The translations under genes and the position numbers were made by a program. A stretch of DNA of 64,000 nucleotides from Promethearchaeota archaeon (GTDB lineage Archaea > Asgardarchaeota > Thorarchaeia > Thorarchaeales > Thorarchaeaceae). Of this stretch, positions 3,160 through 32,640 are shown in pieces. Under the pieces are notes generated by a model. The model was not told the origin of the DNA. It made no database searches and worked only from the letters and a program-made list of their open reading frames with translations. The stretch is taken from contig WJMJ01000131.1 in the NCBI GenBank assembly GCA_014728035.1, forward strand, positions 117,381 through 181,380, in the 5' to 3' direction. The stretch's first letter is position 1. The number at the start of each line of letters is the position of its first letter.

Positions 3160-4194
3160 TCAAAATATTGGAAGTATAACTAAGAATGCGAATACCATCA
3201 GACCAAAAATAGCTGATATAGGTACGGTAATAATCCAAGATATAACGATAGAACGAATCTGATCTTTTTTGATTGGTGTCTGCGAAATCCATCCCACAGC
3301 TATCAATGCGGCAACGAGAACATGAGTACCACTTAGCGGCAATCCAAAATACGTCCCGACAAACATAACCATCGAAACGGAAACACTTGCAGATAATGCA
3401 GAAGAGGGGGAGAGCGTAACTACTTCTGTAGAGAGTGTTTTGATAACCTTTCGGCCAACTACTACTAACCCGAAAGCCATTCCAACTCCTCCAACTAAGA
3501 GAGGAATCACAATACCTGGAAACACAAATGGGCCAAAGAAGACAGGCTCTTGAAAATCAGGTAGAGCAGTTAAGGGAGCTACTGCATTAGCAACATCATT
3601 CCCACCTCTACTTAGTGAGGTGATAATCAAGAAGACTGCAAGACCATAAGCAGCCAGTTCTTCTTGACGCTCACGCTGTGCCAGACCTGGCGCTCTAGAT
3701 TGGATTCGCCGAACTCCTTTGAATACCACTGCAGCAATGCCAAAACCAACAACGGGAGAAATGACCCATCCAGCAAGAATCTCGACAATCACATTCCAAG
3801 AAATTATCTCCATGCCCCAACCAGTCAACCCAAAAAACGGAGCGGATGCAGCCACACCAATAACTGAGCCGACTATACATTGTGTTGTGCTAATCGGAAG
3901 TCCTTTTGTTATAGAAGCAAGTAGAAGCCAAATTGCCATTGAGATAAGAACTGCAAACATCATTGTAGTCGTTAATTGTTGACCACTAATCAAATCAGAC
4001 CCTACTTTCTCAGAGACCCCACCACCAAGTGATAAAGCTCCGATAATATTGATGACCGCACCTATTGCAACAGCTGTGGTTACTGAAAAAACCTTAGCCC
4101 CAACAGCGGGACTCATTGTTTCATCATTGCTTCCAATCGCAAAAGCCACAATAAAGCCAATGACCAGTAATAGAAGAAGAATGACTAAATCCAC
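3160..4194 (-). CDS. PiT family inorganic phosphate transporter
   Basis: Duplicated GSND/GGNDVAN and LPISTT/LPLSGTH motifs; multiple TM helices. Confidence 0.93.
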   Translation of the reverse strand: MDLVILLLLLVIGFIVAFAIGSNDETMSPAVGAKVFSVTTAVAIGAVINIIGALSLGGGVSEKVGSDLISGQQLTTTMMFAVLISMAIWLLLASITKGLPISTTQCIVGSVIGVAASAPFFGLTGWGMEIISWNVIVEILAGWVISPVVGFGIAAVVFKGVRRIQSRAPGLAQRERQEELAAYGLAVFLIITSLSRGGNDVANAVAPLTALPDFQEPVFFGPFVFPGIVIPLLVGGVGMAFGLVVVGRKVIKTLSTEVVTLSPSSALSASVSVSMVMFVGTYFGLPLSGTHVLVAALIAVGWISQTPIKKDQIRSIVISWIITVPISAIFGLMVFAFLVILPIF

Positions 4195-27901: not shown

Positions 27902-27967
27902 AGGATATAGCATATCCTCTACAGAGGACAAAGACTGCAAAAGAAAAATAGTCTGCGAGGATGATGA
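27902..27967 (+). repeat. 66-bp direct repeat, copy A
   Basis: 65/66 identical to 29178-29243. Confidence 0.95.
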
Positions 27968-27974
27968 GTTGTAT

Positions 27975-29114
27975 CTATTCAGCATCCTCTATTGTTTCAT
28001 GAAGAAGAGAAATCACACCCTTAAGAGACTCAACTTCGCGTTTGAGCATAGCCGTGAATTCCCTCGAATCTTGCAAATCCTCGTAGGGAATTGTTTTAGA
28101 TATTTGAAACCTACCATAAAGATCGATTCTATCCTTTCCAGAATACTTCTTTTCAATATCGGAAAGAGTGAAATCGCATTCCTCAGGAACTAGTCCATAT
28201 ACGGAATACCCTTCTTCAGTTTTCTTTAGGGATTCTACAAATTCTTCATAGTCCAGAACCTTCATTGAAATTTTAGGTAATGGTCCTTTTCGATGAACTC
28301 TGAAATATATTTTGAATCCATCTGGTTTCATTTTGAAAGCGAGAATTACTTTAGATTTCCATTTCTTAGATCTGAATTCTAGATTTTCGAAGGCCAGGTG
28401 TCCAGATTGTTTTTTGTCTAATTCATCAATATTCTTCACCAAAGATGCGATATAGGGTTCTAAGTTGAATAACTGACTCCTAACAGACAGATATCCCGAG
28501 ATATCTTCATTTTTGATCCCACTAAAGGAATTCATTTTCATTTTCTCCAAAATACGTTTAGTTTCCTTGAATAGAAAGGTAGATACAGCTTGTTCACACG
28601 AATTCGGGATAGAATCCGACTTTGTGGATTTATCAGATTCAATGAGACTGCTCAATGCTCTGTGCAGATCTTGCCATAGCATGATATCCACCGATTCTTT
28701 AGGGACTCCCTGCTTTGCAAGGACAGAGAGAATATCCTTTTTAGATTGACTAGTCTGGTCTGCAGTGACTAGAAGTCGGATATCACGATTCTTGTATCTG
28801 GTTTTTAGATCGTCATAGTATTTTCTGAGTTGGGAACTCTTCCCAGACGCGGCGTCGTGTTCTGATTTGACTTTGCTCTCAAATCCAATGACAATTTCAT
28901 CCCCGATCAGAAGACCGTCAATACGCCCATGATCAAGTGTTTCTTGGGAATGAATTATAAAATCGCAGTCCAGTCCCTTAAGTTTATCAAAGCCCAATTT
29001 GCAAAAAAGGGCCTTGCGCCTAGCAATATCAATCTTCTCAAGTACGGCCAGAAACCAGTTAGTAAGCTGGTCCTCGTTTCTTTTGTGAGGTTGATACAAG
29101 AGAGTTAGCCCCAT
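27975..29114 (-). CDS. PD-(D/E)XK nuclease family protein
   Basis: NEDQLT...GRIDGLL...GFESKV...QLRKY. Start reassigned to Met at 29114 (GGTGGT upstream, own TATA at ~29151-29158). Confidence 0.82.
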   Translation of the reverse strand: MGLTLLYQPHKRNEDQLTNWFLAVLEKIDIARRKALFCKLGFDKLKGLDCDFIIHSQETLDHGRIDGLLIGDEIVIGFESKVKSEHDAASGKSSQLRKYYDDLKTRYKNRDIRLLVTADQTSQSKKDILSVLAKQGVPKESVDIMLWQDLHRALSSLIESDKSTKSDSIPNSCEQAVSTFLFKETKRILEKMKMNSFSGIKNEDISGYLSVRSQLFNLEPYIASLVKNIDELDKKQSGHLAFENLEFRSKKWKSKVILAFKMKPDGFKIYFRVHRKGPLPKISMKVLDYEEFVESLKKTEEGYSVYGLVPEECDFTLSDIEKKYSGKDRIDLYGRFQISKTIPYEDLQDSREFTAMLKREVESLKGVISLLHETIEDAE

Positions 29115-29177
29115 CAATACCACCGTACAAGAAGAGTGTGAATCAGGGTTGATATAAACAAATTCAGGATGTAATTG

Positions 29178-29243
29178 AGGATATGGCATATCCTCTACAG
29201 AGGACAAAGACTGCAAAAGAAAAATAGTCTGCGAGGATGATGA
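29178..29243 (+). repeat. 66-bp direct repeat, copy B (23S 3' trailer/terminator region)
   Basis: Includes the base of the pre-23S stem and a minus-strand TTTTTCTTTT tract. Confidence 0.95.
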
Positions 29244-29487
29244 TCCACGATACACAGTAGTACACGTTCTACCCTTGGCAACTCTAGGTACTGGCGAGTT
29301 ACACTTTGGAACCGCACGCCTCGGACATTAGTAGCGGTGAGCTGAACACCTCGTCGAAACTTGGTGCTTACACCCCCGCCCTATTTACCTTGTCTTCTAC
29401 AAGAGTCCTCGTTTCCTAGCCACACGTTACTGTCACCAGTCCCGTGCTGCATTATGCGGCGCTAGTTAAGTGGATATCTAGTTTTGA

Positions 29488-29526
<39 letters not shown>

Positions 29527-29807
29527 TATGGCTTAGCTACCCCACGCTGCCCGATCGGACAATGGGTACACCATAGGCCACCACGATGCGTTCCTCTCGT
29601 ACCGGCATCCTGTTGCTCTCAGATATCCAACAGTCCTAATAGATAGAAACCGACCTGTCTCGCAACGGTCTAAACCCAGCTCACGTTCGATTTTAATCGG
29701 TGTGCACCCGCACCCTTCGGGCCTTATGCGACCCGAGGATATCAAGAGCCGACATCGAGGAAGCAAGCCGCGGGGTCGATAGGAACTCTTGCCCGCGACA
29801 ACTCTGT

Positions 29808-30023
29808 TTGGGGGTACCCAGAACGAATCTCAGACAGGAGAGCCTAGTTGTAAACTTGCTAAACTTACCAGCTCTCAAGCCTGCCGATAACTGTCGATCC
29901 GCGTTGCTATAAATACGGTCTCCCTTACACTCACATCAGAAAATCTGACGGTCATGTATCTTTCTTGGAAAGAGAGGGAGGTCGCACTTCTAGACGCGGA
30001 CACGACATTTACCGGGGGATACC
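29808..30023 (-). other. 23S rRNA intron 2 (216 nt, BHB-type, no ORF), between E. coli-equivalent A2450 and A2451
   Basis: GGGG-UA|G...GUAUCC/GGGUAC stem...CCCC-AA|A. Excision restores GGGGUAACAGAG. Confidence 0.88.
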
Positions 30024-30033
30024 TACCCCTGGG

Positions 30034-30065
30034 TTCCTCGAACTGAAGAGCGAATCTACAGTTCT
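30034..30065 (-). other. 23S rRNA intron 1 (32 nt hairpin, relaxed BHB), between equivalents of 2440 and 2441
   Basis: ACUU-AC|A-GAACUG...CAGUUC-GAGG-AA|C. Excision restores AAAACUUACCCCAGGGG, which pairs with the helix 74 5' strand. Confidence 0.8.
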
Positions 30066-32640
30066 GTAAGTTTTTTGTCATGTCTCGCCTGAACAATTGA
30101 GGAGCGAAACGTTCGCTAGGCCAGCGTTTCCGCCCTGTTCGCGTTATTGTGCGGCGAACAGTCAGCCAGACTATATACCCTTGATCTCTAGGAGACGTTT
30201 CCATCGCCTCTGAGTCTAGCATTGGTCAGGGCTGATCTCTTGTCAGCCCTGTGCCGCCCCAGCCCAACTGCCTACATGCAGGTGTCCCTAGGCTCGCTTG
30301 GCTTAGGTTAGCCAGCCCCAATGCCATAGTCAGTGTTACATGGTTGCATTCTCACACCCCGGAGAGTGTGATTCAACGCTCCTGACTACGCTCTGTATGA
30401 CACCAGAACTGGCAGCTACATGCTGCGTAGTAAACCTCCGCAGGGACTTCTCTTCCCATTAGGACTACATACACTGTTCGGTATGGTGTAGGTTCACCGG
30501 AGCTCTCCTGGGGACAGTGGGGCTCTCATTGCTCCCTTCATGCACGTCGGCATTTAACCGACAAGGCATATGGCTACCTTAAGAGACTCATAGTTAGTCC
30601 CGGCGTTAACCCGAGCTTAGACCCCTTCCGGAGTTTTGACTGACGGGCACAGACCAGGATTCACTGACTGTACTAACGCTTTCGCGCTCGCAGTCAGCTA
30701 TGTTTGTATTAAACAGTTGGAACCCCTGAGTTACTAAGACCTGGAAAGGCGTGAACCAATCCAGGCATGGCACATCCCGAAGTTACGCCACTAATTGGCC
30801 GATTTCCCTCAGGAGAGTTGACTCCGATACACCTTGGTCTTCTAAACCAGGGAACCTGTGTCAGATCTGGGTACGGACTAGGAGGATTCTTCCGAACTCG
30901 ATTTTCAAGGTCACCAGAAATCGGCTGAACGAGTGTCCGACCACTCGCTATTCCACTTTTCTTCTGCTTCTCACCATTACGGTACTCGACAGAGTTATAG
31001 TGTTAAACACCGCGAAGGCGGTGCTCAGCGTATCCAGATGAGTTACAAGTTCGGCATCGCGTTGCCGCGTAACGTACCTCCTAGGTTCAGGAATATTAAC
31101 CTGATTCCCTTTCGTGTTACTCGTGTTACGATAACACTTAGGATCGACTAAGCTTCGGCTGACGACGCATTGCCGAAGAACCCTTTCCCTTTCGGTGACA
31201 TGGATTCTCACCATGCTTCGCTGTTACTACTGCCAGGATCATCAAATCCGGTCGGTCAACGGGACCTCACGGCCCCACTTCTACCCAACCGGATCGCTCC
31301 GCTACCGGATCACGCAATTTTACTCGCGTGCCGTATGGTCTCGGTGACCAGATTTAGCCCCGTCCATTTTCAAGGCCGAGAGCCTCGGTCTGTGAGCTGT
31401 TACGCTTTCGTTCGGGGATAGCTGCTTCTAAGCTCACCCCCAGACTGTCTTGGGCTCTCGACTCCCTTCTTCACCGCACTTATCTGGTACTTAGGGACCT
31501 TAACCATACTCTCGGTTCTCCCCATCTCGGCCTGCCGGGCTTACCCCGGGCACCCGTCTCCTGCTGTCTACGGTTCGTGCAGATTCGGAGTTTTCAGGAT
31601 GGTGAAGAACTTTACGTTCCCCGAGCCAATCCGAAAGTGCTCTACACCACACGATACCTCAAGCAGGGCTTGGCTACGACCAACTTCGCGGAGAACGAGC
31701 AATCACCAGTCTAGATAAGCCTTTTACCCCTAGACCCAGTTCAACGGAACGAGTTGCACGTCAGAACCCTATCGGGCCTCCACCGAGCTTTCGCCCGGCT
31801 TCACCCTGACCAGGTCTAGATCGACTGGTTTCTCGTGTTATGGGAGTGACTACGCGCACTTTCACACGCCGCTCCTCACCCGAAGGTTGCGAGCATATCG
31901 GTTTCCCTACGGTTTCAGCTTGACGCCTTAACCTTGCCACGCCCATAAACTCCCTGGCCCGTGTTTCAAGACGGATGATGCTGACCCGATCCGCTTCGTT
32001 CCTACTATACGATCACTCGTAATTCGTTCACGAAGCCTCTCTTCTTTTCATCAGCATCCTTTGACTAGATTGCTGGTTTCAGGTGCTTTTCACCCCGCTT
32101 CCGCGGCACTTTTCAACTTTCGCTCGCGCTACATAGTTTACTATCGGTTTGGTCTAGTATTTAGGCTTCGCAGATTGTTACTGCGTAATTCACACGAGAT
32201 TACCAACCCATGCTACTCTGGTACTTGATAATGCCTGTAAGTTGCACCTACGGGGGTTTCACCCTCTATGCCCCGTCGTTCCAGACGAGTTCGGCTTCGT
32301 TACATAGGCATATGACTCAAGCCCTTACACCACATCTCCCATAACTCTTCGCTATGGGATTCAGTTTGGCCTTTTCCCCTTTCGCTCGCTGTTACTAAGG
32401 GAATCACTGTTGTTTTCTTTTCCTGGGCATACTAAGATGCTTCAGTTCTGCCCGTTCCCGTTCCAGATTTGACCCTGGAACGAAGCAGGGTATTAACCCA
32501 CTTCAGGAAGTCCAATTGGGGATCCTGCGGATCAACGCCTTCATGCGGCTACCCACAGATTATCGCAGCTTGTCGCGCCCTTCATCGGCTGACCAACCAA
32601 GTCATCCACCAACAACCGTTTAGCGAAACGCGGTCCTACT

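Follow-up and report, generated by a model that had tools for sequence, protein, structure and literature searches.

Twin BHB-type introns around a 10-nt micro-exon probably interrupt the peptidyl-transferase centre in the 23S rRNA gene of a Thorarchaeota genome

The 23S rRNA gene studied here very probably carries two introns of the archaeal tRNA type, defined by bulge-helix-bulge (BHB) junctions, that break up helix 74 in its 3' strand as well as the central loop of the peptidyl-transferase centre (PTC) and leave a micro-exon of only 10 nt between them. We put the probability of this reading at roughly 0.9. The twin inserts are real and conserved, and the kind of intron itself is long known from other archaea. 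The gene lies in the 64-kb window, by which we mean the whole stretch of DNA analysed, 64,000 nt in length. It gave the single LSU match in the whole 4.33-Mb assembly (97.9% complete), so that one 23S copy was found. The gene exceeds the Rfam model by 336 nt in length. The alignment to this model, which the sequence-only reading had suggested as a check, matched the gene and placed an insertion at the expected site: 271 nt were inserted in the peptidyl-transferase region, where the 3' strand of helix 74 was poorly matched and the region misaligned. Read along the RNA, the order is AAAAAACUUAC / 32 nt / CCCAGGGGUA / 216 nt / ACAGAGU or, with longer flanks, GACAAAAAACUUAC / 32 nt (30065-30034) / CCCAGGGGUA (30033-30024) / 216 nt (30023-29808) / ACAGAGUUGUCGCGGGC. 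This three-way split had been described before from the letters alone, and all of its coordinates and sequences agree with the DNA base for base. The parts of the gene, all on the minus strand, are as follows.

29309-32631, minus: 23S (LSU) rRNA gene, Rfam LSU_rRNA_archaea RF02540, 2418.6 bits, model positions 1-2987
30433-30444, minus: 5' strand of helix 74, CCUGCGGAGGUU, from the Rfam consensus structure
30066-30079, minus: 3' end of exon 1, GACAAAAAACUUAC, last base equivalent to E. coli C2440
30034-30065, minus: intron 1, 32 nt; third bulge base A, then the h' hairpin, the second strand of helix H and AA
30024-30033, minus: micro-exon CCCAGGGGUA, 10 nt, equivalent to E. coli 2441-2450
29808-30023, minus: intron 2, 216 nt, without ORF; third bulge base G, then the first strand of h', an arm and the 3' module
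29802-29807, minus: start of exon 3, ACAGAG, equivalent to A2451 C2452 A2453 G2454 and onwards

Positions were numbered after the annotated E. coli 23S rRNA, matched by BLAST with a 358-nt query. The sequence GGGGAUAACAG falls at annotated position 2443 of the 2903-nt E. coli feature, which is standard position 2444, and CUCGAUGUCGG then puts A2503 at its correct place. In this numbering intron 1 is inserted at 2440|2441 and intron 2 at A2450|A2451 (or 2449|2450). Two changes adjacent to the PTC, A2448G and G2444A (window positions 30026 and 30030, minus), are lineage-specific relative to E. coli and the archaeal consensus; the latter is offset by a U in the 5' strand of helix 74 (window position 30442), and both are also found in relatives without introns. 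With respect to the surroundings of the gene, no SSU match was detected throughout the 64-kb window, so the 23S gene is unlinked to a 16S gene, and a 125-nt fragment at the end of a contig (G000:C92:16-140) is all that the assembly shows of a 16S gene. Directly 3' of the 23S gene there is a 66-nt direct repeat (27902-27967 and 29178-29243, 1 mismatch, 1276 nt apart). The pair brackets one ORF of up to 426 aa (27975-29255, minus) that has weak sub-threshold matches to PD-(D/E)XK nucleases (PDDEXK_4, 20.9 bits), and the rRNA trailer seems to have been duplicated here by an insertion.

The junctions were read with tRNA-derived geometry, in which each cut is placed 2 nt downstream of helix H, directly behind the second base of the bulge. 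At intron 2 helix H is GGGG/CCCC, the bulges are UA|G and AA|A, and the intron-internal helix h' is GUAUCC/GGGUAC. At intron 1 the corresponding elements are ACUU/GAGG, AC|A and AA|C, and GAACUG/CAGUUC. Their positions are given here.

30071-30068, minus: ACUU of exon 1, first strand of H for intron 1; AC at 30067-30066 are the first two bulge bases
30064-30059 and 30045-30040, minus: h' of intron 1, GAACUG and CAGUUC, with a 13-nt loop
30039-30036, minus: GAGG, second strand of H for intron 1, followed by AA at 30035-30034
30029-30026, minus: GGGG of the micro-exon, first strand of H for intron 2
30022-30017, minus: GUAUCC, first strand of h' of intron 2, followed by a long structured arm
about 29887-29808, minus: conserved 3' module of intron 2
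29819-29814, minus: GGGUAC, second strand of h' of intron 2
29813-29810, minus: CCCC, second strand of H for intron 2, followed by AA at 29809-29808

The same H helices and bulges had been picked out by the sequence-only reading, which called the junctions at both inserts BHB-like. Helix H of intron 1 is weak, with three of four pairs (C-G, U-A and U-G) and an A-G mismatch. The exon-exon helix h is missing at both introns, giving the relaxed HBh'/BHL form; BHB introns are recognised by 3-nt bulges with a 4-bp helix or by this accepted relaxed arrangement, and it is in the relaxed form that both inserts belong to them. Intron 2 contains no intron-contained ORF of note. Folded alone it has a z-score of -7.9, and the BHB fold obtained with H enforced costs 0.3 kcal/mol relative to the minimum free energy (MFE) fold. 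Five homologues were folded as micro-exon plus intron 2: in four the BHB fold coincides with the MFE fold or is no more than 1 kcal/mol away from it, and in the homologue from a metagenome contig (L178) it lies 3.3 kcal/mol above the MFE. For intron 1, four mini-substrates were folded, and just two of them showed the weak H in their MFE structure. The two BHBs draw on different bases, the 3' cut of intron 1 being only 4 nt from the H helix of intron 2, and both could form simultaneously. In the MFE fold of the whole precursor CCCAG of the micro-exon pairs with CUGGG, a motif close to the 3' terminus of intron 2. This pairing is not conserved (the latter motif is CUAG in the genomes G012 and G005) and we treated it as incidental, with no evidence of ordered splicing in it.

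Removal of the two inserts restores helix 74. The spliced 3' strand pairs with the 5' strand at 11 of 11 positions when read against the Rfam consensus structure, with 10 Watson-Crick pairs and one G-U (AACUU-AC-CCCAGG versus CCUG-C-GGAGGUU), and the full set of 11 is obtained only with both inserts taken out. One of the pairs is a lineage-specific U-A where the consensus has C-G. The earlier claim that cutting after the second bulge nucleotide rebuilds this helix is thereby borne out, but the position then given for the 5' strand was one base off, the strand being at 30444-30433. Helix H of intron 1 uses ACUU and that of intron 2 uses G2445-G2448, and among these bases ACUU and G2445-G2446 are used again in helix 74. 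Because of this overlap the pairings suggest that the splicing-competent fold and the mature fold would be mutually exclusive.

The genome encodes two paralogues of the splicing endonuclease (PF01974/PF02778; L021:1216-1779 and L022:1213-1812), each with an N-terminal and a catalytic domain. The alpha-like protein of 188 aa matches the catalytic alpha subunit of A. pernix (3p1z_B, 7e-42) and, reading the sequence by eye, keeps the Tyr/His/Lys motifs. Its loop IRKPKSPEFEKP aligns with the Crenarchaea-specific (CSL/L1) loop, and a lysine there falls on the position of the CSL lysine of A. pernix, which we take to be Lys44. The beta-like protein of 200 aa has Asn in place of the catalytic His, as would be expected of a structural beta subunit. 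An RtcB ligase is also encoded (L179, 592 bits), and the gene content therefore includes both a candidate EndA for relaxed motifs and a ligase. Asgard archaea have an (alpha-beta)2 EndA with an L1 loop, and this loop has been linked to the cleavage of relaxed motifs (Kaneta et al. 2018, PMC5829648); the alpha/beta pair found here is in accordance with that work and with the broad-specificity EndA that had been postulated for this host.

In the splicing pathway that we propose, helix H of each intron would form in the pre-rRNA between two 4-nt strands, one from the exon and one from the intron, which stop 2 nt short of the 5' and the 3' splice site respectively. The 5' bulge would be closed by the intron-internal helix h' with the exon-exon helix h missing, in the relaxed HBh'/BHL manner. 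At each of the four sites the (alpha-beta)2 EndA, with its Crenarchaea-specific/L1 loop, would cleave behind the second base of the bulge. The three exons, the 10-nt micro-exon among them, would then be ligated by RtcB, which would probably also close the introns into circles. We infer cleavage, ligation and circle formation from the sequence. Since both H helices use bases of helix 74, this helix and the A2450/A2451 core would fold only after both splices. As the sole 23S gene in a 98%-complete genome, the twin-intron gene must yield a working PTC. The inserts might also be excised with the pieces left unjoined, giving a fragmented 23S rRNA as with bacterial intervening sequences in which the 10-nt piece is held by pairing. 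The micro-exon could indeed be held by its 6 pairs with the 5' strand of helix 74, but we know of no precedent for a free 10-mer as the A2450 side of the PTC. The junctions are moreover EndA-type BHB motifs, the products of which are normally substrates of the encoded RtcB, and published BHB rRNA introns are ligated (PMC4496867). We regard a fragmented product as improbable.

Comparison with relatives gives the most direct view of the spliced product. The LSU genes of 20 relatives were compared and the region was cut between two conserved anchors. A genome of the same genus (G001, L005) is insert-free and reads AAAAAACTTACCCCAGGGGTAACAGAGTTG, that is AAAAAACTTAC-CCCAGGGGTA-ACAGAGTTG, a letter-for-letter match to the predicted spliced product; the same product is found in 27 further members of the family without introns. 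By BLAST this intron-less segment is 97% identical to the window up to the last base of exon 1, then 100% identical from the last base of the micro-exon into exon 3 and 96% thereafter. The intron 1 junction is unique, the exon-final C differing from the intron-final A and the intron-first A from the micro-exon-first C, while that of intron 2 can slide by 1 nt (A|A) with the product unchanged. The micro-exon is identical in all family members compared, whether they bear introns or lack them. Cutting after the second bulge base, as in a BHB intron, thus gives the sequence of the homologues without introns. The comparison with related 23S genes had been proposed together with the BHB reading, and the junctions drawn from that reading yield exactly the congener's sequence.

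It could be argued that the inserts are retained in the mature rRNA as expansion segments, which do occur in Asgard 23S rRNAs and would agree with the 336 nt by which the gene exceeds the model, or that the gene is a dead copy. However, one insert splits helix 74 on its 3' side and the other parts A2450 from A2451, in the buried catalytic core, and the congener does without them. As expansion segments they would also leave the conserved GAGG/CCCC strand, complementary to the exon, without a role. A dead copy is at odds with a gene that is the only 23S gene found and is otherwise highly conserved. Taken together, these two possibilities appear to us slightly less probable still than fragmentation.

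The twin arrangement was also found in two genomes of two other genera, G012 and G005, and in the metagenome contig Ga0164310_10104255 (L178). The Asgard host assumed earlier is supported by the first of these, which is named as follows.

G012 (L062), contig JAWOEX010000045.1: Candidatus Thorarchaeota archaeon BLK6-1.bin.124

All four copies of intron 1 are 32-33 nt long and share one architecture. Their hairpin stems are unrelated in sequence yet 96% of the cells are paired, and 7 of the 10 pairs examined in h' have changes on both sides among the four sequences. The covariation score was reached in 0 of 500 shuffles and all slid registers collapse. Across the four copies neither the bulges nor GAGG, the partner of the exon in H, shows any change. 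At site 2, that of intron 2, the h' helix differs in each of six genomes and the partner of GGGG is CCCC, UCCC, ACCC or CCCU; H and h' are kept in all. The four ORF-less homologues of intron 2 (144-285 nt) share 34 consensus pairs, 12 of which show compensatory change. In the intron core of both inserts structure is thus kept over sequence, as in BHB introns, and the relaxed motif without an exon-side helix that had been predicted recurs, with compensatory changes, in every homologue. The 3' module of intron 2 is a separate case of conservation: about 75-80 nt long, it keeps 70-80% identity in five assemblies, which represent at least four genera, where the rest of the intron is 35-58% identical, and it contains a CUGGUAAGUUUAGC...ACAACU hairpin and a UGAGAUUCGUUCU mini-hairpin. 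BLAST of intron 2 within the family matched the 3' ~75 nt alone, in two genomes. No Rfam family matched the module (29808-29887, minus), which may act as an RNA element or as a site recognised by a protein or enzyme.

These data also bear on whether the 216-nt insert is a degenerate self-splicing intron of group I or II and not an EndA substrate. Group I introns do occur in archaeal LSU genes (PMC6125680). Against this, Rfam matches no such intron in the window at the gathering threshold or on the inserts at E<=5, the insert is small for a ribozyme core at 216 nt, and the canonical order of 3-nt bulge, 4-bp helix and 3-nt bulge is kept in six genomes; a ribozyme origin is therefore very improbable. 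The lone match to the inserts at E<=5 was a MIR319 hairpin on the opposite strand, which arose by chance. An assembly artefact or chimera, which a metagenome-assembled genome with an estimated contamination of 8.5% might suggest, can be set aside almost entirely, as the same architecture, placed at the same bases but with diverged introns, is present in four independent assemblies and the 23S gene closely matches that of its congener.

The two introns differ in their distribution. Across 400 genomes of the phylum the mini-intron pattern was found only in the present genome (G000), G005 and G012, which are three genera of one family. A BLAST survey of 86 genomes of this family, 38 of which cover the site, gave the following classes.

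28 of 38 genomes: intron-less at both sites, including congeners of all three twin-intron species
5 of 38 genomes: short ORF-less intron at site 2 (G000, G011, G012, G005, G371)
5 of 38 genomes: long intron of 737-792 nt at site 2 (G008, G369, G340, G344, G002)

The A2450|A2451 position is therefore occupied in 10 of the 38 genomes that cover it, about a quarter, and in this survey the mini-intron was never found without the short intron 2. The long introns are a lineage of their own without the conserved 3' module of the short ones and never occur with the mini-intron; that of G008 (L012 4080-4870) has an ORF with a double LAGLIDADG_3 motif. Outside the family G016 has a 344-nt BHB intron at site 2. 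Further hairpin mini-introns of 30-31 nt and the same build are present at other 23S sites in relatives, one of them in the congener G001 (L005 ~4102-4131, equivalent to ~29780 of the window; H helix GUUC/GAAC) and one in G014 (L002; H helix CUCU/AGAG). Larger inserts lie in 23S domains V/VI of G003 (L009, 216 nt) and G004 (L013, 429 nt). The rRNA genes of the host's family are widely interrupted.

BHB introns in rRNA genes have long been known from Thermoproteales and Desulfurococcales. Those in crenarchaeal 23S rRNA genes (Desulfurococcus, Staphylothermus, Pyrobaculum and Aeropyrum) are excised by the tRNA splicing endonuclease and set free in circular form. The introns described here resemble them in the junction motif, in the predicted use of EndA and RtcB, in their location in functionally central rRNA and in the existence of forms with and without an ORF, and differ in the relaxed HBh'/BHL form without an exon-exon helix. 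Self-splicing introns also use this neighbourhood: group I introns occupy LSU position L2449 in organelles, among them the yeast mitochondrial omega intron with I-SceI. They lie in the same hot spot beside A2451, 0-1 nt away, but are ribozymes and our insert shows no group I signature (Rfam Intron_gpI). In motif class and in the (alpha-beta)2 EndA with a CSL/L1 loop there is a likeness to the non-canonical tRNA introns with a relaxed HBh' (PMC5829648), although here the substrate is rRNA and two introns are to be removed within 10 nt.

The closest counterparts are in 16S rRNA. Short hairpin introns of less than 50 nt have been catalogued, and the 16S genes of Pyrobaculum and Thermoproteus hold the intron pairs S1205+S1213, 8 nt apart, and S901+S908, 7 nt apart (Jay & Inskeep 2015, PMC4496867). 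The rarity that the sequence-only reading implied was thus overstated, twin rRNA introns with micro-exons of 7-8 nt having been published for 16S genes of Thermoproteales. S1205 is a short ORF-less hairpin and S1213 encodes I-PogI, an enzyme that cleaves where the ORF-less neighbour inserts, and the two introns thereby co-convert (PMC4496867). Like the 16S pairs, our introns consist of a short hairpin BHB intron a few bases upstream of a larger BHB intron, at a conserved site and around a micro-exon, and the site of the larger one holds a LAGLIDADG-encoding intron in some genomes (here G008). Unlike them, they are in a 23S gene, at 2440/2450 of the PTC and in an Asgard lineage (Thorarchaeota), and the larger intron is ORF-less in every genome with the mini-intron. 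A co-conversion pair of the I-PogI type was not found: LAGLIDADG introns occupy site 2 in other genera, unaccompanied by the mini-intron.

The H helices sequester bases in the 3' strand of helix 74, the 3' module of intron 2 is conserved and the mini-intron is present only with the short intron 2, leading us to speculate that the twin introns are more than passive parasites. They might then be inherited together as a unit, and their obligatory and perhaps ordered double splicing might set the timing of PTC folding, with the excised, highly structured intron 2 persisting as a functional circular RNA. We consider this unlikely at present.

The searchable full-text literature gave no report of BHB introns in Asgard rRNA genes, such introns being described there only for Thermoproteales, Desulfurococcales and Aigarchaeota, and rRNA does not come up in a 2026 preprint on Asgard tRNA introns. 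Our analysis places predicted protein-spliced rRNA introns, including twins and mini-introns of 30-33 nt, in the Asgard archaea, the closest prokaryotic relatives of eukaryotes. Inserts of this kind misplace the PTC in covariance-model alignments, disrupt primers and probes and inflate the apparent length of the rRNA. The locus is also a natural substrate for studying how an (alpha-beta)2 EndA deals with two relaxed motifs that are separated by 10 nt and how so short an exon is kept available for ligation. If both introns are spliced as predicted, ribosome production in these organisms would hinge on the tRNA splicing machinery at the very catalytic core of the ribosome.
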